20,000 nt of DNA, taken from the IMG/VR virus record IMGVR_UViG_3300048597_000249; one strand, given 5' to 3'. The DNA comes from an uncultured virus (IMG/VR IMGVR_UViG_3300048597_000249). Lineage: Duplodnaviria > Heunggongvirae > Uroviricota > Caudoviricetes. The notes below the pieces were generated by a model. The model had not been told where the DNA came from and made no database searches. It saw only the letters and a list, made by a program, of their open reading frames with translations. Within the stretch, counting starts at the first letter, position 1. Every line of letters starts with the position of its first letter. The position numbers were made by a program, and so were the translations under genes. Below, piece by piece: positions 1 to 18,697 of this stretch.

Positions 1-26
1 ATAATAATTCAGATTTATACGATGAG

Positions 27-596
27 TTGGTTAGCAAAATCAAGTTACATCATCCGCATTACTATATTGAAAATTTTGATGATCACGAAAAAAAGACTGT
101 TAGTAGTTATGATACGACCAAGTTAGATGTAAAAATATGGTTAAATGAGGGTTCGTCTAAAACTATAACAAAAACGGATTTTATTGAAAAATTAAATAAG
201 GATACTTATCGTATTCAGGATAGTCGTTTTTATATTTCGTTTGACGAAATCCCCAAAGCTAAACTTATATTATCTAATAAAGATCCAGTTAATCCAGATG
301 CTTATAAACAAGGTGAAATTGAGCGTATTATTGAAAAAGAGTGTGACGCAATTAAAGAACTTTTGTTAGAGAAGAATCGTAAATATGGAAATAGTGCGTT
401 GTCGCCATTAAGGATTTTTTCTAAAGCGGATTGTATTGAACAGATTAATGTACGAATTGATGATAAATTAAGTCGTATTAAAAATGCACAGGATGATGAA
501 GATGAAGATGTTGAAAAAGATTTAATCGGTTATATGATTTTAAAACGTGTTGCCAAAAGATTAAATAAAGATGACGGAATTATGGTTCGTCTGTAA
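27..596 (+). CDS. Protein with C-terminal DUF1599-like (nucleotide-modification-associated) domain; probably 5'-truncated by the window
   Basis: Motif ELLLEKNRKYGNSA...VRIDDKLSRIKN...DLIGY resembles DUF1599 phage proteins. The frame is open back to base 3, so the true start may lie upstream. Confidence 0.65.
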   Translation: MVSKIKLHHPHYYIENFDDHEKKTVSSYDTTKLDVKIWLNEGSSKTITKTDFIEKLNKDTYRIQDSRFYISFDEIPKAKLILSNKDPVNPDAYKQGEIERIIEKECDAIKELLLEKNRKYGNSALSPLRIFSKADCIEQINVRIDDKLSRIKNAQDDEDEDVEKDLIGYMILKRVAKRLNKDDGIMVRL

Positions 597-599
597 ATT

Positions 600-902
600 A
601 TGTTTTTATCTGATATCGCCAATTTTTCAATCACATACAGAAGGAAGGTTTTTCCCAAGTATAATTCTCCAATAGATTCTGACCGACCTGGTAAGAAGAA
701 GATGGTATTGGCGAAAGATGGAGATAAAGTTAAATTACTCCATTTTGGTCACGAGAAATATCAGGATTATCGAACCCACAAAGATAAAAAGCGTAGGGCG
801 AACTATTTAGCACGTAGCGGGGGGATTAAGGATAAAAATGGTAATTTAACAGCAAATAATAAGCTCTCAAGCAACTTTTGGAGTAGATCCACTCTCTGGT
901 AA
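600..902 (+). CDS. Basic DUF5754-like protein
   Basis: KKKMV...LHFGHEKYQDYRTHKDKKRRANYLAR...NFWSRSTLW resembles a family seen in large DNA viruses and phages. Confidence 0.6.
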   Translation: MFLSDIANFSITYRRKVFPKYNSPIDSDRPGKKKMVLAKDGDKVKLLHFGHEKYQDYRTHKDKKRRANYLARSGGIKDKNGNLTANNKLSSNFWSRSTLW

Positions 903-1643
903 CATAATTTCCTCACACAAGTAACCTTTATAGTTTTTCATTTTTCCTTTAGCAAGTTTTGCTAAACAACTTACATCTAGGTTATCGTGTTGTTTACAAA
1001 ACCAATTTAAACCGATAACACAAAATTGAATTTCATCTGGTGTTGTTATTAGATATCTTTTTGACGAATTGATACTTTGTTTTTCACGATGCTCTTTTGT
1101 TACAGCTGCTTGCATTATTTTGATAATTTCTTTATTTCGCTTTTTATACTTTTCTGTTGTTGTTTTATTGATTCTAGGTTCAACTTTTTTACCGTCTATA
1201 CTAATAATACGCCAACCTTTACAAGAGCATCTTTCGCCTCGTGCTACTTTATAAAAGTCTGTAAAATCTATATTATGCTTTTTACAAAATTCAACTACTT
1301 TGTTTGTTTTGATAATTAACCCACTATCGTTAATTACCTCATATAGTTTGCTAGGTCTATTACCAGTAGGATATGTTACTTTCTTGCTCATATTTAATGG
1401 TGGTTGAAAAGTGTCAATATAAGACTGTTCTAATTTCAACAATTCTACATGTGTTTTTGCGCTATCTATAATACGAAACAAATATTTATCAGGATATTGA
1501 TTAAAGACATTTTGTAGATATTTGTTAACATGTTTGTTTTTGTTTAACTGATTTAAATGTGTGGATTCTCGTTGTTTAATATGTTTTGTGCTACCAATAT
1601 AGAAATAATTTGTATCTAAAAATTCAATAAGATAAATAAACAT
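867..1643 (-). CDS. Free-standing GIY-YIG homing endonuclease
   Basis: N-terminal FIY-x9-YIGST, downstream R (QREST-H) and E-Q...LN motifs; two C-terminal repeats (FCKKHN..KG..KGW and FCKQHD..KG..KGY) like endonuclease DNA-binding modules. Confidence 0.85.
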   Translation of the reverse strand: MFIYLIEFLDTNYFYIGSTKHIKQRESTHLNQLNKNKHVNKYLQNVFNQYPDKYLFRIIDSAKTHVELLKLEQSYIDTFQPPLNMSKKVTYPTGNRPSKLYEVINDSGLIIKTNKVVEFCKKHNIDFTDFYKVARGERCSCKGWRIISIDGKKVEPRINKTTTEKYKKRNKEIIKIMQAAVTKEHREKQSINSSKRYLITTPDEIQFCVIGLNWFCKQHDNLDVSCLAKLAKGKMKNYKGYLCEEIMLPESGSTPKVA

Positions 1644-1721
1644 TCTTTAATAAAATAATACGTAATTGTATTATAATATTTATAATTTCTAATTAGGTTA
1701 GAAAAATTTTATGGTGATGTA

Positions 1722-1751
1722 TTGACAGTTTTTTAAATTTTGGTTTACTAT
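1722..1751 (+). promoter_or_regulatory. Sigma70-type promoter
   Basis: TTGACA (1722-1727), 18-bp spacer, TACTAT (1746-1751). Predicted start near 1758, just before the structured RNA. Confidence 0.7.
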
Positions 1752-1759
1752 AGTTACAA

Positions 1760-1941
1760 CCTAGTCTGGCTTGGTAGCCACAAGTTGAAACGGAACTTGC
1801 AACCGAAAAGGAAACTATAACGTTCAGTTGAAACCAAAAATTTGCGAATCCACCGAGCAGCCTCGCGAGTGGTTGTCAGGGAAGGGCGTTTCATTTGGTT
1901 TCTTAATATAGTTATTAGGGGTTCAATTCCCCTGACTAGGA
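1760..1941 (+). ncRNA. tRNA-like structured RNA with large internal domain (182 nt)
   Basis: 7-bp closing stem CCTAGTC (1760-1766)/GACTAGG (1934-1940) plus A1941; T-arm AGGGG-TTCAATT-CCCCT (1917-1933); several nested helices; non-coding, GC-richer gap behind a promoter. Confidence 0.75.
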
Positions 1942-1961
1942 CTTAGATTATTATGTAAAAT

Positions 1962-2159
1962 ATGCAAAATTTTAATTATCGTGATTTATTAAAAAAATAT
2001 ATCGAACATGTAGGAGAAGAAGAAGGAATTACTTTTCTTGGAGATAGTCGTAAAAATAGTAATATATTTAGCGAAGAAGAATGGGAAGAACTTAAAGAAC
2101 TAGAATATGAAAGTGCTGTAGATTTTGGACATATTAAAGATGATGATGAGAAACCCTGA
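1962..2159 (+). CDS. Small acidic hypothetical phage protein
   Basis: ATG ORF packed with the next gene. Confidence 0.65.
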   Translation: MQNFNYRDLLKKYIEHVGEEEGITFLGDSRKNSNIFSEEEWEELKELEYESAVDFGHIKDDDEKP

Positions 2160-2322
2160 CAGAATTGAACCGATTTTAAATGAGTTGAAAACGTTGTGGT
2201 TAAAATATCCTGATTTACGCTTAGGGCAACTTATTTCGTTATGTAATCGAGATGTTTTTAACATTGGGGATGTTGAATTAATTACAATTTTAAAAAATAA
2301 ACTAAATGTTAACGACAAATAA
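2146..2322 (+). CDS. Small conserved phage protein (RDP.RI...W...PDLRLGQL type)
   Basis: MRNPDRIEPILNELKTLWLKYPDLRLGQL motif; start placed at the last of three tandem ATGs (2140-2148). Confidence 0.7.
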   Translation: MRNPDRIEPILNELKTLWLKYPDLRLGQLISLCNRDVFNIGDVELITILKNKLNVNDK

Positions 2323-2567
2323 TTCTGGCGATATTTGCGGATGTTTACCTGGTGGTATCCTAGGTTTTGCGAGTAATAGCACTGAAAAATGGTTTGATAT
2401 TTGGTGAGATTATTTTTATTTTTCAATAGCATCGAGAGAACCTTTTTCAAAAGAAAATGAAAAAGAATATGTTCATAGTTATCTGTATTTGTTAAATCCG
2501 TTTGGGATACAGTTAACAAAAATTATTTATTATGGTAAGTTCATTATTCTTGTGGAGTTAGATAGTT

Positions 2568-2861
2568 ATGCCAGTAGCCGATAAAGTTAATAGTATTGTT
2601 GAGTTGTTAAATCGTGCGTTTAAAAAAGACCCTGCGGTTAATTTAGTTTTAATTAACGACGATTATTTGTATGAAGGAATTGTGCGTGAAGCATTAATGT
2701 CGGTGTTTGGATATTCGGTGCAAAAAGCACGTGAGTTAATGATGGCGGCGCATCAGTTTGGTAGTAGTATTATCTGGAGTGGAGAACGTGGTAAAGCAGA
2801 AGAATATGCTGTGATTTTGCGAATTCGATATGGTATTACAACTGAGATTGTAGATGATTAA
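2568..2861 (+). CDS. clpS: ClpS-like Clp protease adaptor
   Basis: VNLVLINDDY...VREALMSVFGYSVQKARELMMAAHQFGSSIIWSGERGKAEEY follows the ClpS consensus (V.L.NDD, A..lM..aH..G, AE). GGAG upstream. Confidence 0.85.
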   Translation: MPVADKVNSIVELLNRAFKKDPAVNLVLINDDYLYEGIVREALMSVFGYSVQKARELMMAAHQFGSSIIWSGERGKAEEYAVILRIRYGITTEIVDD

Positions 2862-3150
2862 ATACGATTTAGAAATATTTTACATAAAAAATGAAGAAGA
2901 AAAATCAGTATTAAAACTTTTTGATTGTGATATCGAGCATCAAAATTTAATTAGTCTATATGGTGAAAAAGTTAAAAAAATATTATTTGTCTACAAACCA
3001 CCAACTTATCGCGTAAATTCTTATAAATATGAAGAATATCAAACTAGCGACTATGATTTAGATTATGTTGAGTTATACGGGGATGCTGTAACTTTAAAAA
3101 ATATTATAGATGAGTTAATAAAGGAAAATGACGAGTACAATAGACAATGA
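2854..3150 (+). CDS. Hypothetical protein
   Basis: ORF overlapping both neighbours in operon style. Confidence 0.6.
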   Translation: MIKYDLEIFYIKNEEEKSVLKLFDCDIEHQNLISLYGEKVKKILFVYKPPTYRVNSYKYEEYQTSDYDLDYVELYGDAVTLKNIIDELIKENDEYNRQ

Positions 3151-3313
3151 TATTTTTTCCAATAACGAAGTCACCACTTGTATTGGATATTTTGGGACAA
3201 CTTGTAAACATTTAAAATTCCGTAAGCAAGGATTAGTTCCAGTTTGTGGTAAATATAAAGTAGACTTGGATGTTGGTGCAAAACGTTGTAGGGAGTGTTT
3301 AAAAAATGAGTAA
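3128..3313 (+). CDS. Small Cys-rich hypothetical protein
   Basis: AAGGA upstream; five Cys including RCRECL. Confidence 0.6.
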   Translation: MTSTIDNDIFSNNEVTTCIGYFGTTCKHLKFRKQGLVPVCGKYKVDLDVGAKRCRECLKNE

Positions 3314-3551
3314 TTATTACGCTATGAAACAATATATTATTGGTGATAATCACTGCAAAGAATATCGGTATGTTGTGACTGACTGGAATATAACAGTTGA
3401 TTGTCCAGGTGTCGAAATTGAATATCAAGAATTTGAAGATAAACAATGGGTAACAAAAAATAATATTTCGATGGGGGAAAAACCGTTTGATTTACTAGTT
3501 GAAGTTTTAAATGAGATTAAAAATTCTGAGTTAACAAAAGAAGATTATTAA
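3306..3551 (+). CDS. Hypothetical protein
   Basis: GGGAG upstream; coupled to previous ORF. Confidence 0.65.
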   Translation: MSNYYAMKQYIIGDNHCKEYRYVVTDWNITVDCPGVEIEYQEFEDKQWVTKNNISMGEKPFDLLVEVLNEIKNSELTKEDY

Positions 3552-3557
3552 AATGGG
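3516..3557 (+). repeat. 42-bp direct repeat, copy 1
   Basis: attaaaaattctgagTtaacaaaagaagattaTtaaaatggg; 2 mismatches to 3800-3841. Confidence 0.9.
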
Positions 3558-3804
3558 CATTAAATTAGCAAAAATTCTAGTTGAAGTTATTGACGATAGT
3601 TATTTGCGTGAAGACTATTCTGGTCGTGGTATGTTTGGTAAAACTACAGCCGGTTTTGTCGTGGATAATTTAGCTGATACTATGTCTGCGATCATTAATT
3701 GTGCAGATGTTTTTATTGATATTGAAGATGGGGATGTTTACCCTATGTTTGGAGATGTTCGTTTAAAAATTGACAACATGGGTAAAGGATATATTATTTA
3801 TTAA
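3553..3804 (+). CDS. Conserved phage hypothetical protein (YSGRGM motif)
   Basis: REDYSGRGMFGKTTAGFVV...DNMGKGYIIY is a motif I recognise from small phage proteins of unknown function. Confidence 0.7.
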   Translation: MGIKLAKILVEVIDDSYLREDYSGRGMFGKTTAGFVVDNLADTMSAIINCADVFIDIEDGDVYPMFGDVRLKIDNMGKGYIIY

Positions 3805-3841
3805 AAATTCTGAGCTAACAAAAGAAGATTACTAAAATGGG
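3800..3841 (+). repeat. 42-bp direct repeat, copy 2
   Basis: attaaaaattctgagCtaacaaaagaagattaCtaaaatggg. Confidence 0.9.
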
Positions 3842-4043
3842 TATTATTTATAAAAAACTATACTGTCCTTATTGCAATCATCCGCATAATGATGAAGATA
3901 AGGTAGTTGATGTTTTGGGCGAAGATTTGCAAACAACTATTCAGAAAAATTTTGGCAAACAACCTCATCGAAAACATTATTGCTATAGTTGTGAAAAAAT
4001 ATTCATAGATCCTAACAACGAAAAATCAATTTCTAAACATTAA
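3837..4043 (+). CDS. Small putative zinc-binding protein
   Basis: CPYC..H.H and H..H.CYSC motifs. Confidence 0.65.
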   Translation: MGIIYKKLYCPYCNHPHNDEDKVVDVLGEDLQTTIQKNFGKQPHRKHYCYSCEKIFIDPNNEKSISKH

Positions 4044-4047
4044 AATT

Positions 4048-4209
4048 ATGAACACAATTGTTACAGATACAACGCTTAAAGTTAAACGAGTTAATAAAGA
4101 AGCTGTTATTCCCAGTTATGCGCATGATGGAGATGCTGGGTTAGATTTGTCGAGTATGGTGTCTGTGACGCTTAATCCTGGTGAACAGAAAATGATAGTT
4201 AGTGTTTGA
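4048..4209 (+). pseudogene. dut: Truncated dUTPase N-terminal fragment (53 aa), absent from ORF track
   Basis: Translates MNTIVTDTTLKVKRVNKEAVIPSYAHDGDAGLDLSSMVSVTLNPGEQKMIVSV*; contains motif 1 (AGLDL) and stops before motif 2. Confidence 0.85.
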
Positions 4210-4218
4210 AAAAAAAAA

Positions 4219-5634
4219 ATGAATGTTAAAAATAACAAAGTTGCTGTAACATGTATTGTTTGTAATGCGGTCAATCATGTATGTTTATCACGATCTAGAA
4301 AATACAAGACATGTTCTATGGCGTGTCGAGTTAAGTTATACAGTCCAAATTTATCTAATATAGTAGAAAAAACTTGTGAAATATGTGGTAAAGTAGAGCA
4401 TTTACCACCTTCGCGCGCTAAAGTTTATAAAACTTGCTCATTGTCGTGTCGAAATAAACTTATTAGTATCAAGTTGACCAAAGAAAAAATAGTAAAAGTA
4501 TGCTCGATATGTGGCAAAGAATTTATGCAAAAACTAAGCGATGTTGGACGAATAAAACATTGTTCTAAAGAATGTAGTTATAAAAGTTTAAAAGAAAGAT
4601 ATATAGGTGTGAACAATCCTGCTTGTAAGTATAAAACTATAGACCATAATTATTTTAAAAATGTTAATAGCGAGTTTAAAGCTTATTTGCTAGGTTGGAT
4701 ATGTAGCGATGGTCATGTTAGTAAAAATAATGTGAAGATAGCAATTAGAGATTACGATTATCAGCTATTAAACACCTTGCGTCAAGTTATATGTAAAGAT
4801 TTACCGATCAAGTATTATAATCCGACTAAATCTGTGAGTTTGACAATTTGTTCAAAAACCTGGGTTAACGATATATGCAATCTTTTACAAATAAAACCTG
4901 GTAAAAAATCAGCAGTTGTAAAATTTCCAGAGTTAGAAAATGATTTTTTAAAATGGTCTTTTTTGCGAGGTGTTTTTGACGGTGATGGGTCTATTATGTC
5001 ATCCAAAATGGGGAGCACCTATCCAAAATGTAACATTACAAGCAATTCCCATGACCTTCTAAAAAGTATTGAAAATTTTGCGAATACAAATTGTTATGTT
5101 TCATATAAGCATAATTTTATAAATTTTAATGGCGAATACGCTATGGTATTTTTAAATAAACTTTATGCAAATTCTAATTATCGCCTCTCTCGTAAGTATA
5201 ATACTTATTTAGATTGGGTTTGTTGGGAGCCTGGTGTATTTGGTCATAAAAGTTATAAAGAAGATGCGATAAGATTTGTTAAAACTCGCAGGCATAGTAT
5301 TATACCAACATGCGCAGAACACGGTTATAAGATTTATGCGACAGATAATTTCGAAGTTGTTTATAACAATGTTGTTAGTTATAATATTGGTATTCGTGCT
5401 GTACCACATGGTAAATTCTGGTATGATTTCGAGTTAGATAAAGATTTATATAACAGAGGTTATCGTTTATTGGAGCCATTCGTACCGATAGGTGCTACAA
5501 ACCATTCAACTATAAACCTCTTACTCAAAACCGATGGTGTAAATTGTGAAAATATTAAAACACCATTTATAATTGGTGAGTTAGTTAAAAAAGAAATTGT
5601 TCGCCCAAGAATTGTTGAAGTAAATACCTTATAA
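4219..5634 (+). CDS. LAGLIDADG endonuclease with N-terminal zinc-finger repeats and C-terminal degenerate dUTPase-like domain
   Basis: Three CxxC...CS..C repeats; double motif AYLLGWICSDG and FLRGVFDGDG; last ~120 aa follow dUTPase layout without catalytic motifs. Confidence 0.85.
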   Translation: MNVKNNKVAVTCIVCNAVNHVCLSRSRKYKTCSMACRVKLYSPNLSNIVEKTCEICGKVEHLPPSRAKVYKTCSLSCRNKLISIKLTKEKIVKVCSICGKEFMQKLSDVGRIKHCSKECSYKSLKERYIGVNNPACKYKTIDHNYFKNVNSEFKAYLLGWICSDGHVSKNNVKIAIRDYDYQLLNTLRQVICKDLPIKYYNPTKSVSLTICSKTWVNDICNLLQIKPGKKSAVVKFPELENDFLKWSFLRGVFDGDGSIMSSKMGSTYPKCNITSNSHDLLKSIENFANTNCYVSYKHNFINFNGEYAMVFLNKLYANSNYRLSRKYNTYLDWVCWEPGVFGHKSYKEDAIRFVKTRRHSIIPTCAEHGYKIYATDNFEVVYNNVVSYNIGIRAVPHGKFWYDFELDKDLYNRGYRLLEPFVPIGATNHSTINLLLKTDGVNCENIKTPFIIGELVKKEIVRPRIVEVNTL

Positions 5635-5641
5635 TTACCGA

Positions 5642-6079
5642 GTGAAAGATATGAAATTTGAAATAAAGTTATTAAACCCCAAAGCTCGTACACCTAAATA
5701 CGCACACAAAACAGATGCCGGTTGTGATCTTTATTGTTTGGACGATGTGATTTTAGAACCAGGTGTGGTTAAAATTGTTCCTACGGGTATCGCAGTAAAT
5801 ATCCCAGAAGGATATGAAGGACAAATACGTTCTCGCAGTAGTGTAGCTACTAAAAAAACAATTATCATACCAAATGCTCCTGCGACTATTGATTCAGGTT
5901 TTTGCGGAGAAATTTGTGTTGCGTTGTTAAATCTAGGTAATCATACTCAAGGTTTTTCTGCTGGTGATCGGATTGCTCAGTTAATATTTTCACCAATTGT
6001 TTATGCTGAATTTATCGAAGTAGAGGAGTTAGATGATACAGAACGTGGTGAAAATGGCTTTGGGAGTAGTGGCAAATGA
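5642..6079 (+). CDS. dut: Trimeric dUTPase
   Basis: All five motifs: AGCDL, RSRSS, TIDSGFCGEI, GDRIAQL, RGENGFGSSG. Confidence 0.96.
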   Translation: MKDMKFEIKLLNPKARTPKYAHKTDAGCDLYCLDDVILEPGVVKIVPTGIAVNIPEGYEGQIRSRSSVATKKTIIIPNAPATIDSGFCGEICVALLNLGNHTQGFSAGDRIAQLIFSPIVYAEFIEVEELDDTERGENGFGSSGK

Positions 6080-8266: not shown

Positions 8267-8389
8267 ATGAATAAAATTATTGAGAGTAAGTTGCGTAAAG
8301 TGACCAATAACAAACTAGCGAAAGATAAGTTAAAAAAGAAAAATGAAGTAGTGTTATTAAAACAAAATTTGTGTTTAGTTGAGAAATAA
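8267..8389 (+). CDS. Small basic protein (40 aa), paralog of the 7304 N-terminus; absent from ORF track
   Basis: MNKIIESKLRKVTNNKLAKDKLKKKNEVVLLKQNLCLVEK; AAGGT upstream. Confidence 0.55.
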   Translation: MNKIIESKLRKVTNNKLAKDKLKKKNEVVLLKQNLCLVEK

Positions 8390-8396
8390 TAACTAA

Positions 8397-8469
8397 GCGC
8401 TGTTGGCCGAGTGGTTGAGGCAACGAACTCATAATTCGTCTTAGACAGGTTCGACTCCTGTACGGCGCA
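8397..8469 (+). tRNA. tRNA with CAT anticodon (elongator Met or Ile2)
   Basis: Acceptor GCGCTGT/ACGGCGC+A, D-arm GCC..TGG..GGC, anticodon arm ACGAA-CTCATAA-TTCGT, T-arm ACAGG-TTCGACT-CCTGT. No encoded CCA. G1-C72 pair argues against initiator. Confidence 0.93.
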
Positions 8470-8678
8470 TGTTAATCATAGCGTTGTTAATTTTTAAAAA
8501 TATGTTGAATAAAATTAAGCACAGAGTATTGTTTTTAGATCGAATATCATATTGTCCAATTTGTAGTGAAGATTTGTGCGGCGAACCGTTTTGTAGTAAA
8601 CACGGTGATGTTAGTGGTCAACCTTTGTGGAAATATACTTGGTTGTTTAAGTTAATACCAAGTTGGTTGAAAAAATAA
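8469..8678 (+). CDS. Small zinc-ribbon-like protein; true start probably ATG 8502
   Basis: YCPIC...FCSKHG; the annotated start overlaps the tRNA end. Confidence 0.55.
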   Translation: MLIIALLIFKNMLNKIKHRVLFLDRISYCPICSEDLCGEPFCSKHGDVSGQPLWKYTWLFKLIPSWLKK

Positions 8679-8691
8679 ATAATTAATAAAA

Positions 8692-9351
8692 ATGAAAGTT
8701 AAATTTATTAGTGTTACTAAACCAGAAATTGAAATCGACGGTAAACCATTAACACCAGAAGGTTTAATTGCATATTGCGCCAGGGTAAGTTCGCCGAATC
8801 AAGAAAATCCTGACTATGAAAAATTGTTGCGATACTGTATGCGAGAAGGACATTGGTCAATTTTTGAAATGGTCGATATGACTGTAGAAATTACGACTAC
8901 TCGTGCTATTGCGCCGCAACTACTACGTCACAAATCGTTTTCCTGGCAAGAATTTAGTTTAAGGTACTCTGAAGCGTTAGATTACGAACCATGTGAAGCA
9001 CGTCGTCAAGATTTAAAAAATCGCCAAAATTCTATTGATGATTTAGTTGATGAGGTTAAGGATTGGTTTACGGACACGCAATTGGAAACCTGGGATGTTG
9101 CCTATGAAAATTATCAGCAAGCATTAAAATTTGGCATTGCCAAGGAATGCGCCCGGATGTTGTTACCGTTGAACACAGTAACCAAGTTGTATATGAAAGG
9201 TTCTGTTAGATCTTGGGTACATTATTTTCAAGTACGTTGTGATGATGCGACACAGAAAGAGCATCGGGATATTGCTTGTGCTATTCGTGATGATATTTTT
9301 TCAACCAAATTTCCAACTATTTATAATATTTTGATGAATAGTGATGTTTGA
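8692..9351 (+). CDS. thyX: FAD-dependent thymidylate synthase
   Basis: [21 protein letters not shown] signature, [15 protein letters not shown]. Confidence 0.96.
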
Positions 9352-9454
9352 GCTTATTGTTTACTATCTGATTGGTTTTATATTTGGGTTTCTTTATGGT
9401 GTGTCACGAAAATAATTAACAAAATATAATAGAAATAATTTATATTAAATAACA

Positions 9455-9784
9455 ATGTTGGAGTTAACTTTAAATCAACAATTTGACTATCGTGTTATCT
9501 CAGATAGCGCAACACGATTATCTAATGAGCAATTACTAGAACAACTTAAACAAGCACATCATCTTTTAAAACAAAAATCTTTTATTTTAGATAACTTTCT
9601 TACAAATAGTTCGTTAGAAATTAAATTTATTGACAAATCTGACCCTACTTATTCTTTCAACCAACATTTAATTTTTCTTGAGTTTGAAAAATATGATAGG
9701 GAGAAATTAATCGACGTATTACTAGGTACGATTAAAACTTTAATGTATACGGAAAATCATATTAAAAGTGTGTTAATCGGTTAA
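9455..9784 (+). CDS. nblA: Tandem two-domain NblA-like phycobilisome degradation adaptor
   Basis: ELTLNQQF...LSNEQLLEQL matches the NblA pattern (eLslEQqF...msreQa...L). Second half (FNQHLIFLEFEKYDREKLIDVLLGTIKTLMYTENHIKSVL) repeats the pattern. Confidence 0.7.
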   Translation: MLELTLNQQFDYRVISDSATRLSNEQLLEQLKQAHHLLKQKSFILDNFLTNSSLEIKFIDKSDPTYSFNQHLIFLEFEKYDREKLIDVLLGTIKTLMYTENHIKSVLIG

Positions 9785-9812
9785 AATAAAACGGTATATT
9801 TTTTACCGTGAG

Positions 9813-10292
9813 ATGAGAATATTATCTATTGACGTTGGTATAGTTAATATAGGTTATGCTATTTTTGAGATCGCCGAAAACGACATAACCTATCTTTCTT
9901 CTGGTTATTTATGCACAAAACATAAATCACAAACAAAAGAAAGGCTCGCAATTATTTATGATTATTTTGCCGATATTATAAAAAACACTGAAATAAAAAC
10001 ATTGATTTATGAACAACCAATATTTAATCGTGGTGCATCTGGCGCAAATGTAGTTAAAGCAGAAGGTATTTTATTATTGTTGGCGGGAATTAATAATTTA
10101 GATTGTTATAGTTATACGCCGAGTTGTATAAAAAAAGCATTAACTAAATTAGGAAAAGCCGATAAAAAAGATGTTGAAAATGGCGTAAATAAATTTCTTA
10201 ATTTACAATTAACTTTTAAAACGGATCATGAAAGTGATGCTTGTGCGATAGGTATTACTCATTTTCTGAAAACTAGCGAGGTGATTGAATAA
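9813..10292 (+). CDS. ruvC: Holliday junction resolvase
   Basis: ILSIDVG..NIGYA, YEQP, YTPSCIKKALT..GKADK, HESDACAIG. Confidence 0.93.
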   Translation: MRILSIDVGIVNIGYAIFEIAENDITYLSSGYLCTKHKSQTKERLAIIYDYFADIIKNTEIKTLIYEQPIFNRGASGANVVKAEGILLLLAGINNLDCYSYTPSCIKKALTKLGKADKKDVENGVNKFLNLQLTFKTDHESDACAIGITHFLKTSEVIE

Positions 10293-10525
10293 TGGTTAAT
10301 GCGGTCAGATGGTATAAGTCCACAAGCGAAGAAACAGCGATTGTACAGGTGTTTGAGAATGGTAGATGGGTTAATGCTCGTAATTCACGTATATACACTG
10401 CTGATGTCGATTTTAGGGGTAGTTTTGGTAATGCATCTGAAGGATTTGCGACTTTCCAAAAAGCGCTTAAACTAGGATATGAAAACAAAGGCTTGTTTAT
10501 TGCCGACGTAATAAAAGAAGATTGA
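10292..10525 (+). CDS. Hypothetical protein
   Basis: TAATG stop/start coupling; GAGGTG upstream. Confidence 0.7.
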   Translation: MVNAVRWYKSTSEETAIVQVFENGRWVNARNSRIYTADVDFRGSFGNASEGFATFQKALKLGYENKGLFIADVIKED

Positions 10526-10620
10526 TATTTTTTCAATCGAGATAAGAATAACTGATACTCCTTGCATTTTTCTGGTATTGTGCAATCATTGTATAAATAG
10601 AGTTGAAAATAAATTTAAAG

Positions 10621-10764
10621 ATGCGTAAACCAAGAATCAAAGCGAATCAAGTTGGTAAGATGAAAAAAGTTATGAAGATGGTGTTTGAAGATGGTAAAAC
10701 TACTGGTGCAAAAGCAAGAAATGCAAAACAGTATTTTGCGGAAGTAATTTTAAATTCTTTATAA
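10621..10764 (+). CDS. Small basic protein (47 aa), absent from ORF track
   Basis: MRKPRIKANQVGKMKKVMKMVFEDGKTTGAKARNAKQYFAEVILNSL; ends 4 nt before the next start. Confidence 0.55.
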   Translation: MRKPRIKANQVGKMKKVMKMVFEDGKTTGAKARNAKQYFAEVILNSL

Positions 10765-10768
10765 ATAA

Positions 10769-10975
10769 ATGGAAAAAGATTATAATTCTAGCGGTATTTT
10801 TTTACCTTTATTGACAACGTTATTTATTGGGTTAAAACTTACTGGGTATATTGATTGGTCATGGTGGTGGGTGTTATCGCCGCTTTGGATACCGTTTGCT
10901 ATTGTGTTAGTTTGTATGGCGATTATTTTTTCAATCTACGTCGTAGTTTATGTAGTTGAAAAATATTTAGCTTAA
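10769..10975 (+). CDS. Small phage membrane protein (LKL.G.I.WSWWWVL.P.W family)
   Basis: GLKLTGYIDWSWWWVLSPLWIP motif; hydrophobic throughout. Confidence 0.8.
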   Translation: MEKDYNSSGIFLPLLTTLFIGLKLTGYIDWSWWWVLSPLWIPFAIVLVCMAIIFSIYVVVYVVEKYLA

Positions 10976-10987
10976 TTATTTTATATG

Positions 10988-11012
10988 GACTCTGTTTTGT
11001 TACAGAGTCTTT
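10988..11012 (+). terminator. Possible intrinsic terminator
   Basis: GACTCTGT-6 nt-ACAGAGTC followed by TTTAATT. Confidence 0.5.
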
Positions 11013-11035
11013 AATTAATTTAGGAATTATCTGAA

Positions 11036-11497
11036 ATGTTAGTTAATAAAAATAGCATTGAAGCTACGTTGCTTGATTTTGCAAGTGTTGGAGAAAATAT
11101 TGAAGATTTTTCGCAAGAAGAAATTGATTTGATTTTTAAGAGAACTTTTGAAGATTTGGCCACATATCATTACCAGTGGGTTTTTAAACAAAACTGTTTA
11201 AAAGTTACAGAAGAACGAGAAAATATTTACAAAATCAATGATGTATTAAATTATTTACAAAGTTTTAATGATACTTTATTGTGTAAACTATCAGTATGTA
11301 GTAAAAAGTTGTCTTCTGGACGTTATATGGTTTTTATTCGAGATTGTAATATTACAACTCCGTTAATCAAAGTAAAAGAATGTTTAGACGATATAAAAGA
11401 CAAATATGGTAATTTAGAAGTATTTTTTAATAAAGGTGATTTAAAATCTTTAAAAATAATTACACTTCCTGTAGAATCTTATTTAACTTTGGTGTAA
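11036..11497 (+). CDS. Hypothetical protein
   Basis: AGGA upstream; 153-aa ORF. Confidence 0.7.
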   Translation: MLVNKNSIEATLLDFASVGENIEDFSQEEIDLIFKRTFEDLATYHYQWVFKQNCLKVTEERENIYKINDVLNYLQSFNDTLLCKLSVCSKKLSSGRYMVFIRDCNITTPLIKVKECLDDIKDKYGNLEVFFNKGDLKSLKIITLPVESYLTLV

Positions 11498-11499
11498 AA

Positions 11500-11844
11500 A
11501 TGTATAACTTAGTTGTTTTAAAAAATAAAATAGGTTACGTTACAAGTGTTTTTGATCGACGTGGTAATGAGATTTGGAACAATGTAAATTACGCCGATTT
11601 GTTAGTAGACGATTTGGCGCAACAACATTTCTCAATCGACAATGTGTTATTTGATGATTGGTCGTTATTTTGTGTACAGCTACTGGCTACATCAAAGTTA
11701 TTTAATAAAGATGTAAAATTGATAAGTATTTCTGATGTACCGCAGGAAGAGTTATTTATTGCTAATGAGTGTATGGGAGTTTATGGAAAAGCGAGATATG
11801 TGCATCGAATGTTTTTGAAAGACAAGAATAAAGTTGCTTGTTAG
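11500..11844 (+). CDS. Hypothetical protein
   Basis: Tightly packed ORF before nrdJ. Confidence 0.7.
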   Translation: MYNLVVLKNKIGYVTSVFDRRGNEIWNNVNYADLLVDDLAQQHFSIDNVLFDDWSLFCVQLLATSKLFNKDVKLISISDVPQEELFIANECMGVYGKARYVHRMFLKDKNKVAC

Positions 11845-11873
11845 AATAAAAATCCTAAATAATTAGTAAGAAT

Positions 11874-14075
11874 ATGATTTTAAAAGATAGTATTCGTCGT
11901 CACTTTGAAAATGTTGCGCCTAAATATATTGAGTGGGATTTTTATAAAAACTATATTGATGTTGAACCGCCATTTGGTCAGTTAGGATTACCTGTATTTT
12001 TGCGCACTTATTCTCGCCATATTCCCTCTGAAAAACGACGAGAGAAATGGATCGAAACGGTACTGCGTAATGTTGAATTTAGTATTGGGTTGGATAATGT
12101 TACATCTTACGCTGAGTTGAAAAAAGAAGCTAAAGAATTGTTTGATTATATTTTCAATCTACGCACTTTCCCTAGTGGTCGTTCATTATGGGTGGCTGGT
12201 AGTCAACAAACACAAGTTGATCCTTCATCAGTTTGGAATTGTACTTTTCGTTCTATTAATAGCATTACTTCTTTTAGTGAAATCTTTTATTGGTTATTAA
12301 TTGGTGCTGGTTGTGGTTTTTCTGTAGAACAAAAATATATTGATTTATTACCATATTTTTATAACGAAAATAAAACTATTTCTCATACTGGCGAAAATGT
12401 TTGGATTAAAAATAATGAAGAAACAGTTTTTGCGTATGATTGTTGTGTTAAAAATTTAACTAATTTGGATTTAACGTTATCTGATTATGAATATCGCCGT
12501 AAAATAAATATTCCTAAAAGTGTTCAAAATATTGTTATTTACGTTGGGGATAGTAAACAAGGATGGTGTAATGCTGTTCGTTTATATTTAACCTTATTAA
12601 CCTATGAGCAAAGTTTAAATATTACGTTTGACTATTCTTGGGTTAGACCAAAAGGTGAACCGTTGAAAGTATTTGGTGGACGTGCTTCAGGATGTAGAAA
12701 TTTAATAGATCTATTTGATCGTATGCACGAAACTATTTCTGCAAATAAACTATCTTCTGTAAATTGTTTGGATTTAGTTTGCATTATTGGTTGCGCTGTT
12801 GTATCAGGAGGGATTCGTAGAACGGCTCTTATTGGTTTAGGTGGTGCAGAAGATGATGAATTTAAAACTGCTAAATATAAATTATGGCAAGATCCTGCAA
12901 AAGCTAAATATACAAAATATCGAGTAATGTCCAATAATTCTATTGCTGAAAAATCAAAAAAACCAGATCGACAAGTCTTTGACGAAATGTTTATCGCGAT
13001 TAAATCGAATGGCGAACCTGGTATTTGGAATGTTGGTAATGCTCAAAAATATGATGAACAAATCATTGGTACTAACCCATGCGGTGAATCAGGTTTACGT
13101 GATAAGCAGTCCTGTAACCTTACGACAAATAATGTATTAGCATTTGTTAAAAAAACTGAAAATGGCGATACTTATTTTGATGAAGAAAATTGGCGCAAAT
13201 CCTTATATTTATCAACTCGTATTGGTAGTCGTGTAACAACTCTTTCTCAATGGCATCCAGAATGGGATAGAGTGCAAAAATCACAACGGTTACTCGGTGT
13301 GTCGATGACTGGTTTAATGGACGCTGTGGATACGCTGGGTTGGGATGAAAAACAATTAGAAAGTTTTTTAATTCGTTCGCAACAATATGTGCGAGATGTT
13401 GCCGATAGTTATCACGAAAGACTAAGTATTGAACGTAGTACTCGTATTACCCTTTTTAAACCAGAAGGAAGTTTAAGTCAGTTACCCACTGTATCCAGTG
13501 GTATTCATCGTGCTTATTCGCCACAATACTTGCGCAGGGTGCGTTTTTCAGCCATTGACCCTTTGGCAAAAGCTTTACTCAATGTTGTTGGTCAAAGTAA
13601 TGTTAAACCCGAAAATGGACAGGGTGAAGATATTATGAACGAACATGTAGATACATGGGTATTCACATTTCCAATTCGGACGAAAGCAAAGATTCGTGCC
13701 ATTGATGAACCTGCAATCACACAATTAGAGCGTTATAAACTTGCGCAAAGTACGTATACCGCTGATGGTCACAATACGTCTGTTACAGTTACAGTAGCCG
13801 AAGACGAGTGGGATGATGTCGCCGATTGGGTATATAAAAATTGGGAATCCATTATTGGAGTAAGTTTTTTACCGAAATACGATCCAGAAAAAGATGTATA
13901 TCCGCAAATGCCATATGAACCGTGTAGTGTTGACAAATACAAAGGACTAAAAAATATTATGCCAACGTTTAGTGAAAATCAACTTATTACATTGATATCC
14001 AAATATGAAGATAATTATGATGAATATCAGATTTTAGAAGATGCTTGTGCTAGCGGTGCTTGTCCACTTCGTTGA
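11874..14075 (+). CDS. nrdJ: Adenosylcobalamin-dependent (class II, monomeric type) ribonucleotide reductase
   Basis: FLRTYSR, PSGRSLW, WNC, GDSKQGW, FGGRASG, VVSGGIRRTA, GTNPCGE, CNL, KPEGSLS, C-terminal CASGACP. Confidence 0.95.
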   Translation: MILKDSIRRHFENVAPKYIEWDFYKNYIDVEPPFGQLGLPVFLRTYSRHIPSEKRREKWIETVLRNVEFSIGLDNVTSYAELKKEAKELFDYIFNLRTFPSGRSLWVAGSQQTQVDPSSVWNCTFRSINSITSFSEIFYWLLIGAGCGFSVEQKYIDLLPYFYNENKTISHTGENVWIKNNEETVFAYDCCVKNLTNLDLTLSDYEYRRKINIPKSVQNIVIYVGDSKQGWCNAVRLYLTLLTYEQSLNITFDYSWVRPKGEPLKVFGGRASGCRNLIDLFDRMHETISANKLSSVNCLDLVCIIGCAVVSGGIRRTALIGLGGAEDDEFKTAKYKLWQDPAKAKYTKYRVMSNNSIAEKSKKPDRQVFDEMFIAIKSNGEPGIWNVGNAQKYDEQIIGTNPCGESGLRDKQSCNLTTNNVLAFVKKTENGDTYFDEENWRKSLYLSTRIGSRVTTLSQWHPEWDRVQKSQRLLGVSMTGLMDAVDTLGWDEKQLESFLIRSQQYVRDVADSYHERLSIERSTRITLFKPEGSLSQLPTVSSGIHRAYSPQYLRRVRFSAIDPLAKALLNVVGQSNVKPENGQGEDIMNEHVDTWVFTFPIRTKAKIRAIDEPAITQLERYKLAQSTYTADGHNTSVTVTVAEDEWDDVADWVYKNWESIIGVSFLPKYDPEKDVYPQMPYEPCSVDKYKGLKNIMPTFSENQLITLISKYEDNYDEYQILEDACASGACPLR

Positions 14076-14164
14076 AATAATATAGTTTCGCCATGTTTTT
14101 GTTAAAGGGGTGTGGCGAACCCCACGTAAGATAAAATTGATTAGTACACGTTAAGAACAAAAAT

Positions 14165-14776
14165 ATGGTTGTTGCAGTAGAGAAAAAACCACGTATTAAA
14201 AATGGTATTTGTGGTAGCGGTGATAAAATGTCTTCCGCATTAATTGAAGGATTGCGCTTACCAAAATCACATAAAGTATTTCAAATTTATGGAGCACAAG
14301 AAAGACTTTGTAATACGTTGTCTCTTTTTAAATGTCGCTATGGTCGTGAGTTAGAGTTTGACGATTTTCGCATTCTAACCTGGTTAATTCGCAATCTAAA
14401 CTGTTTGGGTGGTTTCTGTTATACCAAGGGTACAAACGCCGATTTTGTGTTTCCTGAGTCGTTTTTAGACAAGCTTGAGGAACGTATATTTGATGTTTTT
14501 CAACCTGCCACGACAGATTGTTTAGACTTTCTTATCCAAGACGAAGAATCATTTATTTTAATGGATCGTTGTCGAATTGAAATACGTGATTTAGAACGTG
14601 CTTTTGCTATTTGGTATGAGGTGCTTTACGGTAAACAAGAAGCAAGTGGTTCTATTTTGTTGATGTCGCAAATTTTAAATCGACTAAGTACCTATTTTTT
14701 CAATCTACTACGCTATGAGGGTTTGAAAAAAAATATTAGTGAGAAACCTTGGTCAGGTAAAGTAGAAAGTTTTTAA
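14165..14776 (+). CDS. pduO: PduO-type cob(I)alamin adenosyltransferase-like protein
   Basis: GSGDKMSSALIEGLRLPKS...YG (cf. TGD.G.T.L..G.Rv.K...yG), RIEIRDLER (cf. R...RRAER), LNRLSTYFF.L.R (cf. LNRLSD.lF...R). Confidence 0.8.
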   Translation: MVVAVEKKPRIKNGICGSGDKMSSALIEGLRLPKSHKVFQIYGAQERLCNTLSLFKCRYGRELEFDDFRILTWLIRNLNCLGGFCYTKGTNADFVFPESFLDKLEERIFDVFQPATTDCLDFLIQDEESFILMDRCRIEIRDLERAFAIWYEVLYGKQEASGSILLMSQILNRLSTYFFNLLRYEGLKKNISEKPWSGKVESF

Positions 14777-14797
14777 CATTAATAAACTAGGAATAAG

Positions 14798-14824
14798 AAG
14801 ACATCAATCTGCGATGTCTTTTTT
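14798..14824 (+). terminator. Intrinsic terminator after the pduO-like gene
   Basis: AAGACATC-7 nt-GATGTCTT followed by TTTT. Confidence 0.65.
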
Positions 14825-14854
14825 ATTATTTATGCTAAAATAAATCAACAACAT

Positions 14855-15331
14855 ATGATTAAAACTATGTTCAAAAAATTAAGTTACGAAGATATTGAAA
14901 CTCTTTCTCACAACGACCTAAAAAAAGAAAAAATAGAATGTCAAGTTGCTATTATCGAAACAAAAAATCGTATCGCTAATATTGACGAAGAAACAGACCT
15001 CAACGGCGTATATTTTGACAAATTATCCCGCAAGTTAAATCACCTGAAAAAACTTGCTCTTAAAATGGATATTCGTCTCGCCGAATTTAACGCAATGCGC
15101 AATGTGTCTAAACTAGACAACGACAACGTGCAGGAATATAATAATGTAGTGCGCCATTTAGAAATTGTACAGTTGTTGAAACCAGATTCTAAATACGCTA
15201 TGTTCCATCAAGTTTGCCATGACTTCCTCGATCAAGATACGTGTCAAATGTTAACCCATGAAACAATGCGTCGTTTGTCGATTCTGAAAGAAGAAGTTAA
15301 AGAAAAATATCCTAAACAAAAAGCAAGTTAA
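14855..15331 (+). CDS. Coiled-coil-rich hypothetical protein
   Basis: 158-aa ORF; TGCTAAAAT extended -10-like site at 14833-14841. Confidence 0.7.
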   Translation: MIKTMFKKLSYEDIETLSHNDLKKEKIECQVAIIETKNRIANIDEETDLNGVYFDKLSRKLNHLKKLALKMDIRLAEFNAMRNVSKLDNDNVQEYNNVVRHLEIVQLLKPDSKYAMFHQVCHDFLDQDTCQMLTHETMRRLSILKEEVKEKYPKQKAS

Positions 15332-15336
15332 AAGTT

Positions 15337-15612
15337 ATGAACAATAGAATTTGGAAATACGTGTTGGAAATTACAGATCAACAAACTTTATCGTTACCAG
15401 TTGGTGCAAAAATTTTAAGTGTTCATAACCAAAATAATAATATTTGTTTGTGGGTTATGGTAGATATGTTTAGTCAAGAATATGAGGATCGTATTATTGA
15501 AATGTTTGGAACAGGCCCAGGGTTTTATATCGACGAAAAAGAACGCACCTATATTGGCACAGTTGTTTTAGAAAAATATGTTTGGCACATATTTGAGTTA
15601 AACTTAAGATAA
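15337..15612 (+). CDS. Conserved phage protein (IWKY...GTG...YIGT...VWH family)
   Basis: IWKYVL...LPVGAKILSV..Q...LW..VD...GTG...YIGTV...VWHIFE. Confidence 0.8.
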   Translation: MNNRIWKYVLEITDQQTLSLPVGAKILSVHNQNNNICLWVMVDMFSQEYEDRIIEMFGTGPGFYIDEKERTYIGTVVLEKYVWHIFELNLR

Positions 15613-15628
15613 ATTTCGCCGAATAAAT

Positions 15629-15880
15629 ATGCCGCTAGATAAACAAGATAATGATTTTTTCAAACAAATTGAAAAAGAACTTTGGGATAAAAAATACGAA
15701 AAACTAAAACAATTACAAAATAAAATTACGACTACCATAGAAAAAATAGAATCATTACCGCTAGAAACTGAAAACGCATCCTATTTAAAAAAAGAAATTT
15801 TACCCCATCTCAAAAACGACTACTACAAAACCTATCTCGAATTACAAAAACACGAAAAACCCAAAAACACCAATACATAA
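15629..15880 (+). CDS. Hypothetical protein
   Basis: ATG ORF in the + strand run. Confidence 0.6.
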   Translation: MPLDKQDNDFFKQIEKELWDKKYEKLKQLQNKITTTIEKIESLPLETENASYLKKEILPHLKNDYYKTYLELQKHEKPKNTNT

Positions 15881-15916
15881 ATACTCTAAAATGGAGAAGT
15901 ATAAATCTTCTCCGTT

Positions 15917-16528
15917 ATGGTTATCAAATCTTTTTTCAAACTGACTTTAATTGTTTATGCTGTAGTAATTGGAGTTGGTTATACTGGTTTCACCAAAGCC
16001 GACCAAAATGAAATACGAGTCAAATATTGTAAAAACCCACAATGTACCGAAGTTAGTGATATTTTAACAATTGATGAATTTGCAAAACTAAAACAACTAC
16101 AACCAATTAAAGAAGAATCAAATTTTTACGACATGTTGGGATTGTATCTTACTGCGGCAATCCCAATCATTGGTTTATTATGGTGGATAATAAATATACA
16201 ACAAGATAAAAAAAATTTAGAACAAAATATTAAACAAGAATCTACTTTAGATAATAAATTAGAAAAAATATTAAATAAACAAGAGTTAATTATTACAGAT
16301 TTTGGCGATGAGATTGAAAAATTACATTTTAAATTTGAGCAAATATTACAACAACTAACAGCGTATCAATTAGAAGCAGTTAAAACTGTTTATTCGCAAA
16401 ATGGCAAAATTGAATTACTTATCGAAAATCTGGCGACAACAAAAGCTTTAATCGCCAAAGTAGAGGATATTGAAAACTTTTTGGCAACTAATTATCAATA
16501 TAATGTCCGTCATCAAAAAGCCGATTAG
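15917..16528 (+). CDS. Membrane protein with C-terminal coiled coil
   Basis: Hydrophobic N-terminal segment and second segment LGLYLTAAIPIIGLLWWIINI. Confidence 0.7.
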   Translation: MVIKSFFKLTLIVYAVVIGVGYTGFTKADQNEIRVKYCKNPQCTEVSDILTIDEFAKLKQLQPIKEESNFYDMLGLYLTAAIPIIGLLWWIINIQQDKKNLEQNIKQESTLDNKLEKILNKQELIITDFGDEIEKLHFKFEQILQQLTAYQLEAVKTVYSQNGKIELLIENLATTKALIAKVEDIENFLATNYQYNVRHQKAD

Positions 16529-18244: not shown

Positions 18245-18697
18245 ATGAACAAACAAGATTTTTATAATATGCTTAATGAAAAATATGAAAATCAAATAAT
18301 AATAATTGAGGCTCAAGGTAATGATAATGTGAGTTTATACATTGAAGAAAATAATTATTCTATCAAACACTGGATTGTTGGCGAAATTTTATGTGAAATA
18401 ACAACATATTGCGACGATTATAGTGATAAATGGTATCGTCTTTTTGTCGATTTTATAGCTTTTGTACATACAAAACCTATAAATAGATCTTTAAATAAAG
18501 TGATTAAAGACGAAGAATTTATGTTGTGTTTTAATATGTTTAGAGCTAATGGTTGGTTATTTGATTGGGGAACTAATATTTATCGATGCTGGATTGATTG
18601 GGATAAAACTAACGTTGATTTTTACGATGTCGGTTATAATAATACGTATAAATTGTCCGAAGATTATTTAAAGTATTGTTTAGATTGGTTAAAATAA
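18245..18697 (+). CDS. Hypothetical protein
   Basis: 150-aa ORF convergent with the integrase. Confidence 0.65.
   Translation: MNKQDFYNMLNEKYENQIIIIEAQGNDNVSLYIEENNYSIKHWIVGEILCEITTYCDDYSDKWYRLFVDFIAFVHTKPINRSLNKVIKDEEFMLCFNMFRANGWLFDWGTNIYRCWIDWDKTNVDFYDVGYNNTYKLSEDYLKYCLDWLK

Follow-up and report, generated by a model that had tools for sequence, protein, structure and literature searches.

A conserved, promoter-linked tRNA-shaped RNA gene in Microcystis phages and in an unrelated uncultured phage

The 20,000-nucleotide stretch of the uncultured Caudoviricetes record IMGVR_UViG_3300048597_000249 (IMG/VR) analysed here, which in its entirety is called the window below, carries on its plus strand at positions 1760-1941 a real, conserved, promoter-linked and structured RNA gene that combines the top half of a tRNA with a conserved extra domain. 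This tRNA-shaped RNA is present in single copy in the window and measures 182 nt from the first acceptor nucleotide to the discriminator A. Its top half is that of a canonical tRNA (7-bp acceptor stem, A73, 5-bp T stem, UUCRAUU loop, GG-bearing D-like loop), and an insert of ~115 nt at the variable-arm position is made up of an arm formed by the helices Pa and Pb, a ~35-nt invariant core and a variable hairpin (Pc). An earlier note on this DNA, made from the letters alone, had proposed the helices with their coordinates, a tRNA-type top half with the insert at the variable-arm position and a near-consensus promoter just upstream; all of the helices and coordinates match the sequence exactly, six of the helices show compensatory changes in homologues, and the top half and the site of the insert are borne out by the sequence and the homologues alike. 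The minimum free energy of the 182-nt RNA (-60 kcal/mol) lies well below that of dinucleotide shuffles (-44.7 +/- 4.1 kcal/mol; z -3.7), none of 200 shuffles folding equally well. The gene and its parts, all on the plus strand, are arranged as follows.

1722..1751, +, sigma-70-type promoter: TTGACA at 1722-1727, 18-nt spacer, TACTAT at 1746-1751 (10/12 matches)
1760..1941, +, the RNA, from acceptor nucleotide 1 through discriminator A1941
1760-1766/1934-1940, +, acceptor stem CCTAGTC/GACTAGG, perfect 7 bp, followed by A1941
1767..1780, +, D-like hairpin, 5 bp with a GG-bearing UGGU loop
1781..1799, +, anticodon-position hairpin, 6 bp with the loop GAAACGG; invariant U-GAAACG-R-A at 1786-1794
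1800..1812, +, single-stranded linker CAACCGAAAAGG(R), the same in all types, with a single change in one LMM01-type variant
1813-1819/1907-1913, +, Pa, 7 bp, the outer helix of the insert
1820..1829, +, Pa/Pb junction; in other types a hairpin, Px, occupies this site (read by eye)
1830-1838/1894-1902, +, Pb, 9 bp
1839..1856, +, invariant core, 5' side, AAUUUGCGAAUCCACC(G/A)A, conserved across types
1857..1876, +, Pc, variable hairpin, stem 1857-1862/1871-1876
1877..1893, +, invariant core, 3' side, N-AGGGAAGGGCGUUUC-R, in which 1887-1893 is the putative pseudoknot partner of 1786-1792
1903..1906, +, UUAA between the 3' strands of Pb and Pa, UUWA in every type
1917..1933, +, T arm AGGGG-TTCAATT-CCCCT, 5-bp stem 1917-1921/1929-1933, loop UUCAAUU

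Homologues of the RNA were recovered from several sources. Our blastn search of 50,697 phage records matched window positions 1761-1945 to nine Microcystis phage records (Ma-LMM01, MaMV-DC, CH01, CH02, DL01, DL02, DH01) at 66-67% identity (E 3e-7), the matches spanning the RNA end to end within an unannotated stretch, and the remaining five matches were short, being due to chance or covering the T arm only. Motif scans yielded 24 family members among 120 viral-contig stretches containing a 14-mer, one (L167, a new type) among 28 matching metagenome stretches, and two among 16 matching stretches in 185,579 species genomes, where the other 14 were chance matches. Both species-genome members are LMM01-type copies on contigs of metagenome-assembled genomes (MAGs); apart from these two phage-like contigs, no host-genome copy was found at motif stringency in the 185,579 genomes. 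The LMM01-type copies L191 and L192 stand on contigs binned to a Crocinitomicaceae MAG and an Acidimicrobium MAG, and these are most likely mis-binned phage contigs. A further scan on the D-like motif combined with the T loop, which does not depend on the core, returned only known types, tRNA arrays and chance matches. In total the motif scans collected 35 distinct full-length sequences, 29 of which entered the model alignment, and every phage record that was searched has a single full copy. The sequences fall into five types: W (the window and a close relative in DNA run X1), W2 (DNA runs X2, X3 and X4), M (metagenome contig L167), V (L227/L259, found by scans independent of the 5' or 3' motifs, with contigs of as much as 90 kb) and the LMM01 type. 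The X1 relative and the W2 form were read from contigs of four DNA runs from four studies aligned to the window. Among the public sequencing runs listed for window 1600-2200, none was of RNA. The window RNA has the helix order of the family together with the invariant GCUUGGUAGC, UGAAACG, CAACCGAAAAGG, AAUUUGCGAAUCCACC, AGGGAAGGGCGUUUC and UUCRAUU, and a sigma-70 promoter.

The secondary structure is carried by compensatory changes among these types. RNAalifold applied to 16 sequences predicted the acceptor, D-like, anticodon-position, Pb, Pc and T helices, with 18 of 42 pairs changed on both sides. After realignment of 29 sequences by the covariance model R1, which represent about five lineages only and are fitted to the structure of the model, 99.0% of 1102 cells were paired compared to 93.7% in shuffles, and 19 of 38 pairs were changed on both sides compared to 4.1 +/- 1.6, a value that none of 500 shuffles reached; sliding the partners by one to three columns left only one to five doubly changed pairs. 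The doubly changed pairs are spread over the acceptor (6/7, C2-G71 being the sole invariant pair), the D-like stem (1/5, G-C to A-U, with an invariant loop), the anticodon-position stem (3/6, with a closing U-A pair and a loop that never vary), the aligned part of Pb (4/4), Pc (3/5) and the T stem (2/5). Pa could not be aligned by machine and was assessed through the W2 variant, with 3' strands taken from loose ends of X3 and X4. Compared to the window, W2 has three changes in the 5' strand of Pa and five in that of Pb. All seven pairs of Pa are kept (three double changes and one single change to a wobble), as are all nine of Pb (four double changes and one single change to a wobble), so that the 16 pairs of both helices survive with seven of them doubly changed; at the position of Pa the other types have different sequences that still pair. 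The compensatory changes that the earlier note had named as a check were thus found in every helix save the pseudoknot, and they argue that the helices are maintained by selection on RNA pairing.

The promoter is likewise shared. In the window the -10 box ends 8 nt before the acceptor, with a predicted start 0-2 nt before it, which agrees with the promoter that had been proposed. The Ma-LMM01 promoter (11/12, with a TG extension) and the V-type promoter (12/12) both keep TTGACA and end 6 nt before the RNA, and the arrangement TTGACA-17/18-TAnnnT, at about the same distance from the RNA, is common to the W, V and LMM01 types. By eye, on loose contig ends, the X1 relative has TTGACA and a TATTAT-like box, and W2 has TATAAT boxes 10-15 nt upstream. 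An encoded CCA is absent from every type.

Outside the covarying helices ~75 nt are identical in all types, namely the loop of the D-like hairpin with the greater part of the stem, U-GAAACG-R-A, CAACCGAAAAGG, AAUUUGCGAAUCCACC(R)A, N-AGGGAAGGGCGUUUC-R, UUWA and the T loop. Within this set the loop sequence TGAAACG (1786-1792) is complementary to CGTTTCA (1887-1893), which the earlier note had drawn as a pseudoknot. The complementarity is real and is present in all types; as a structure, the pairing is without covariation, five of the six pairs of GAAACG/CGUUUC being invariant and the other being broken in one sequence that has other disruptive changes. Because the putative pseudoknot lies wholly inside invariant blocks, covariation speaks neither for nor against it. 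A seventh pair at its flank (U-A in types W and M, U-G elsewhere) is compatible with the pairing but weak. A pseudoknot model was ~2 kcal/mol better than the nested minimum free energy structure in five of five sequences, by a rough energy sum (the nested fold with 12 bases kept free plus the duplex energy) that ignores pseudoknot loop penalties. The kink-turn consensus has a sheared G(1b)-A(1n) pair with A(2b)-G(2n) next to it. Reading the core as a kink-turn (UCC|ACC|GA ... NA|GGG) fits Ma-LMM01 perfectly, and A(1n) is invariant; the G(1b) rule fails in V and in L151, where 1b is A, and 2n is G, A, C or U by type. A search of the window for antisense targets of the linker and of the core gave only the RNA itself and matches at chance level. 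Mimicry of a CRISPR repeat was set aside: UGAAAC in the loop resembles the 3' end of cyanobacterial repeats, but its spacing to the preceding hairpin is unfit.

The RNA matches no described family in our searches. The Rfam scan proposed in the earlier note was run: at gathering thresholds the only match in the window is the tRNA at 8397-8469, with none at 1760-1941, and at E up to 10 positions 1650-2050 gave no full-length family match, the one relevant alignment being a local T-arm alignment to tmRNA (15.3 bits). Three homologous loci were equally blank (tmRNA, 13.3 bits). ARAGORN reported in the window only the tRNA-Met at 8397-8469, with neither a tmRNA nor a tRNA at the RNA locus, and a full cloverleaf (RF00005) was recognised there by neither Rfam (E up to 10) nor ARAGORN. 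The acceptor/T-arm half does have the features of a tRNA (7-bp acceptor, discriminator, 5-bp T stem, 7-nt UUCRANN loop), but a readable 7-nt anticodon loop with U33 is absent, the loop being GAAACGG and the preceding U lying inside the invariant U-A pair. In keeping with the tRNA likeness, the family model R1 gives T4 tRNAs 5-22 bits over the full length of the model and the tRNA-Tyr of Ma-LMM01 13 bits. A tRNA bearing a group I intron, which the earlier note had also rejected, is excluded by the place of the ~115-nt insert, at the variable arm and outside the anticodon loop, and Intron_gpI gave no match at E up to 10. In YrlA and other bacterial Y RNAs the ends form the stem bound by Ro (Rsr), the tRNA-like module is distal and the gene usually lies near rsr. 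Here the ends form an acceptor stem and Rfam gave no YrlA match at E up to 10. No PHROG match named Ro or Rsr occurred among 23 window open reading frames (ORFs), a Pfam TROVE search of the whole window not having been made. Riboswitch and ribozyme families were without an Rfam match at E up to 10.

What the RNA does is approached here from its form and distribution. We tentatively favour, ahead of the alternatives, a tRNA mimic that does not decode; it would be matured by the tRNA enzymes of the host and would occupy a host tRNA-reading factor in trans. Transcription from the sigma-70-type promoter would begin at the acceptor or a few nucleotides away from it, and the top half would be handled as a tRNA by RNase P (if there is a short leader), by RNase Z and by the enzyme that adds CCA, to give a stable RNA of ~185 nt. 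These three enzymes, and also EF-Tu, read the acceptor/T-arm minihelix and the elbow, so tRNA-like maturation is expected; in cyanobacteria, tRNA genes often do not encode the CCA. The insert arm would run back along the anticodon-position hairpin, where CGUUUC-R on its 3' strand may pair with the invariant loop U-GAAACG and seal the loop against decoding. The unreadable anticodon-position loop, its internal complementarity and the 115-nt arm all argue against decoding. The sealed loop and the invariant core would then form a surface which, with the tRNA top half, may occupy a host factor that normally reads tRNAs, candidates being a tRNA-directed defence nuclease or toxin, a translation factor or a stringent-response factor, and the RNA would act early in infection. 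Early-type promoters, mobility and one copy per genome are typical of accessory, often anti-defence, phage functions, and it is these three properties that place a trans-acting tRNA mimic first.

Several points weigh against this proposal. The pseudoknot pairing shows no covariation in the 29 sequences, and the nested minimum free energy fold pairs CGU with GCG instead, as well as UCC/CC with G runs, an alternative that is likewise invariant. A plain decoy would not need ~75 invariant nucleotides when the helices in the same types have all diverged. The anticodon-position loop copies no tRNA anticodon loop and, in a 7-nt reading, has A rather than U at the second position, which would be odd in a decoy for an anticodon nuclease. 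The type M contig L167 has no promoter passing the promoter scan. There are only about five lineages, counted in an alignment that follows the structure of the model. No particular host factor can be named for the window's phage, and the ends of the RNA, its CCA addition and its stability are predicted.

These invariant nucleotides are explained at least as well by an RNA in which the tRNA body is a scaffold for maturation and stability and the function, whether ligand or protein binding or catalysis, resides in the invariant core and linkers, with no mimicry involved. For this reason we rank that explanation second, while considering it somewhat unlikely. The ~75 nt outside the helices were kept as the acceptor, Pa, Pb, Pc and T stem sequences diverged, and the acceptor sequence is free save for C2-G71 and A73, so that no identity set is kept there. 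However, at E up to 10 the RNA matched none of the known aptamer or ribozyme families, there is no candidate ligand or partner, and the invariance of the D-like, T and anticodon-position loops puts the tRNA-like parts also under sequence selection. A more speculative thought, and a doubtful one, is that the RNA is a one-piece copy of a codon-engaged tRNA, a mimic of the decoding state that would engage a machine inspecting codon-bound tRNAs. If U1786 is read as U33 the loop becomes GAA-A and its partner UUC followed by a purine; GAA-A is the loop found in tRNA-Phe, and a UUC-purine facing an anticodon is the specifier arrangement of the T-box. The invariant loop U-GAA-A would thus mimic a tRNA-Phe-like anticodon held by a UUC-purine 'specifier' in cis, carried on the variable-arm extension as if Stem I of a T-box had been joined to the tRNA that it reads, and the CCA end would be processable and perhaps chargeable; the machines concerned might be RelA, the A site of the ribosome or an immune nuclease directed at tRNAs. 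We know of no viral decoding-state RNA mimic of this class described in bacteria. Phage tRNAs and RNA mimics are emerging as counters to tRNA-directed bacterial immunity, the known cases being working tRNAs or repeat mimics. A chargeable tRNA-like RNA, which would receive CCA and an amino acid and then enter the ribosome in an unusual manner or donate the amino acid outside translation, would make use of the canonical acceptor/T-arm minihelix and the invariant A73. The main determinants of valyl-tRNA synthetase are A35/C36 and A73, and those of phenylalanyl-tRNA synthetase GAA and A73; the 7-nt loop gives A35 and C36, as in valine tRNAs, and U1786 taken as U33 gives GAA-A. Neither register is canonical, though, the 7-nt reading lacking U33 and the other requiring a 9-nt loop, while the loop is complementary to a segment inside the RNA that is itself invariant, the D arm has shrunk to a 4-nt loop and, to our knowledge, a ~115-nt variable arm has no precedent in decoding tRNAs. 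This, too, is quite unlikely.

The genomic surroundings and the tmRNA comparison bear on the remaining alternatives. No terminator was found by the terminator scan between the window RNA and the ORF at 1962-2159, and the two may share a transcript, as would be expected of a cis-acting leader (riboswitch-like or T-box-like) controlling an operon from 1962. In Ma-LMM01, however, the RNA is flanked by gp162 and, after its 3' end, by a convergent tRNA-Tyr gene, both of them encoded on the other strand. In L167, where the RNA begins 8 nt after a same-strand ORF, a strong terminator stands 33 nt downstream of it (1337-1381, minus strand; a perfect 20-bp hairpin with a U-rich tail, z -7.25), which probably acts in both directions because the neighbouring gene converges on the hairpin, and the V type has a separate promoter (12/12) after the RNA. 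No downstream gene is common to the types, and the flanking genes differ in every one of them, which points to a free-standing mobile RNA gene instead of a leader, making the latter very unlikely. The tyrosine integrase gene at 18689-19807 (minus strand; phrog_1, 3.3e-35) might suggest a tRNA gene in decay or an attachment site for the integrase, in either case without a function as RNA, phage attP sites often carrying tRNA 3' halves. Yet the RNA lies 17 kb from the integrase gene, it is conserved over its whole length including the promoter and the 5' half, and its compensatory changes show selection on pairing, so we hold this to be extremely unlikely. The least credence goes to a small tmRNA-like RNA acting in ribosome rescue. 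Its T arm is aligned by the Rfam tmRNA model, and in every type a frame opened by the invariant GCG starts with A-N-P-P; these codons, however, are invariant at all three positions, which points to a constraint on the RNA and not on coding. The frame runs for 20, 36, 6 and 10 codons in W, M, V and the LMM01 type, respectively, passing the end of the RNA before its stop in L167. The alanine identity of tmRNA resides in the G3-U70 pair, and pair 3:70 is U-A in 26 of the 29 sequences, U-G in two and C-G in one, never G-U. With scores of 15.3 and 13.3 bits, far under the 47-bit gathering score of RF00023, and a negative ARAGORN result, tmRNA was rejected, as the earlier note had done on the missing G3-U70 pair and tag frame.

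Among known kinds of RNA the one described here is closest to the stable tRNA-like RNAs of phages, such as T4 rnaC, and to mimics of the tmRNA type, and it belongs to neither. T4 species 1 RNA (rnaC, 139 nt) is another stable RNA of a phage with no assigned function; its ends pair, its T arm is of the tRNA type and its large interior is unlike that of a tRNA. The T4 cluster of tRNAs and stable RNAs contains the GIY-YIG gene segB, just as the window RNA adjoins a GIY-YIG gene. Unlike the window RNA with its own promoter, rnaC is cut from a tRNA polycistron; it has none of the invariant core motifs, and R1 gives 11.4 bits on part of it, below T4 tRNAs, the similarity being one of generic tRNA parts only. 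With tmRNA (SsrA, RF00023) the RNA shares a tRNA-like acceptor/T-arm domain, a reduced D region and a large interior with pseudoknot-type pairings, putative in the window RNA, whereas it has neither G3-U70 nor a conserved tag frame, has a canonical-looking anticodon-position hairpin and belongs to a family of about 190 nt compared to ~360 nt. The tRNA-like structures of plant RNA viruses (the valine-accepting turnip yellow mosaic virus type) are also viral copies of the tRNA top half that engage host tRNA enzymes. They form the 3' ends of eukaryotic-virus RNA genomes and have a pseudoknot in the acceptor arm, whereas the window RNA has a normal acceptor stem and is encoded by a gene of its own in a DNA phage. 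A likeness in workings only is offered by the T-box, whose Stem I lies alongside the anticodon arm of the bound tRNA and pairs a codon-like triplet plus a purine with the anticodon loop; here UUC-R (1890-1893) would face U-GAA (1786-1789) in a putative pairing. In the window RNA, however, a single molecule contains both partners, the polarity of the strands with respect to the elbow is the reverse, and no T-box family match was found at E up to 10. Bacterial class II tRNAs similarly have an extra helix between the anticodon stem and the T stem, but their arm is ~10-20 nt compared to ~115 nt with conserved junctions here, where in addition the D arm is reduced and neither the Rfam tRNA model nor ARAGORN accepts the RNA.

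The distribution of the gene points to an accessory cassette that moves between phages. In G004 the RNA with ~55 nt on each side forms an island of 91.6% identity in a 12.8-kb stretch of which 2-7% matches any Fukuivirus record, and the V-type phage has 2-5% of 20 kb in common with the Fukuivirus phages. No shared partner protein was found when all window ORFs were compared by tblastn to 45 kb around four other copies. The V-type phage (G002) also carries a serine/threonine kinase segment (L382, ~14000-14364) that is 78-85% identical to Ma-LMM01-group phages, with which it has little else in common, and this suggests gene exchange among phages of one host. In G003 a second, partial copy (L381, 2241-2391, minus strand; 32.3 bits) is found at a distance of 1.1 kb from the complete one; after the initial ~37 nt of the RNA it continues into unrelated sequence, in which a terminator-like hairpin and a U run occur, and it looks like a recombination remnant. 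Seven LMM01-type copies (L032, L146, L037, L128, L130, L147 and L158) have their last 8 nt altered and the 3' strand of the acceptor unpaired, which is seen as unpaired cells in the model alignment, and would either be decayed or mark a recombination breakpoint inside the gene.

The window itself is AT-rich (GC 0.30-0.35) and encodes a dUTPase, ThyX, a RuvC-like protein, a ribonucleotide reductase, two homing endonucleases and the integrase, from which its phage may be temperate. Megablast of window 1-6000 found no close relative among isolated phages, and blastn of window 8301-16300 against phages gave only short thymidylate-synthase matches; the ribonucleotide reductase is nearest to those of Nodularia phages (44.6% identity). 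The RNA family thus extends beyond the Ma-LMM01 group. Features of the window outside the RNA gene are the following.

867..1643, -, GIY-YIG homing endonuclease gene (Pfam GIY-YIG 3.7e-10; PHROG homing endonucleases), divergent to the RNA
1962..2159, +, first downstream ORF, 65 aa, phrog_21984, of unknown function
4219-5634, +, LAGLIDADG protein of homing-endonuclease type, 471 aa
8397-8469, +, tRNA-Met (CAT) gene, 57.3 bits, the only canonical tRNA in the window

The GIY-YIG gene of the window does not stand beside the RNA in the other types. With the GIY-YIG and LAGLIDADG genes within 5 kb, this region looks like a hotspot for mobile insertions. In the X1 relative, 266 other letters replace 34 nt at window 2096-2131, within or just after the ORF at 1962-2159, an ORF with no relatives among the viral contigs searched.

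No description of the tRNA-shaped RNA was found in the portion of the literature covered, including that on Ma-LMM01 together with tRNA-like RNAs. A term search of the Ma-LMM01 transcriptome study (PMC5780444) returned no mention of tRNA, non-coding, intergenic, antisense, gp162 or gp163, and coverage of the region could remain in the text or supplements of that study. What appears to be new here is a divergent RNA type, from a phage unrelated to the Ma-LMM01 group, that supplies the covariation evidence. The compensatory changes contributed by the divergent copy in the window settle the secondary structure and narrow the functional part to the invariant loop, linker and core. Our data thus describe a mobile, promoter-driven and strongly conserved tRNA-shaped RNA that is no ordinary tRNA, carried by viruses of Microcystis, a defence-rich and ecologically important bloom-former, and by the unrelated AT-rich phage of the window.

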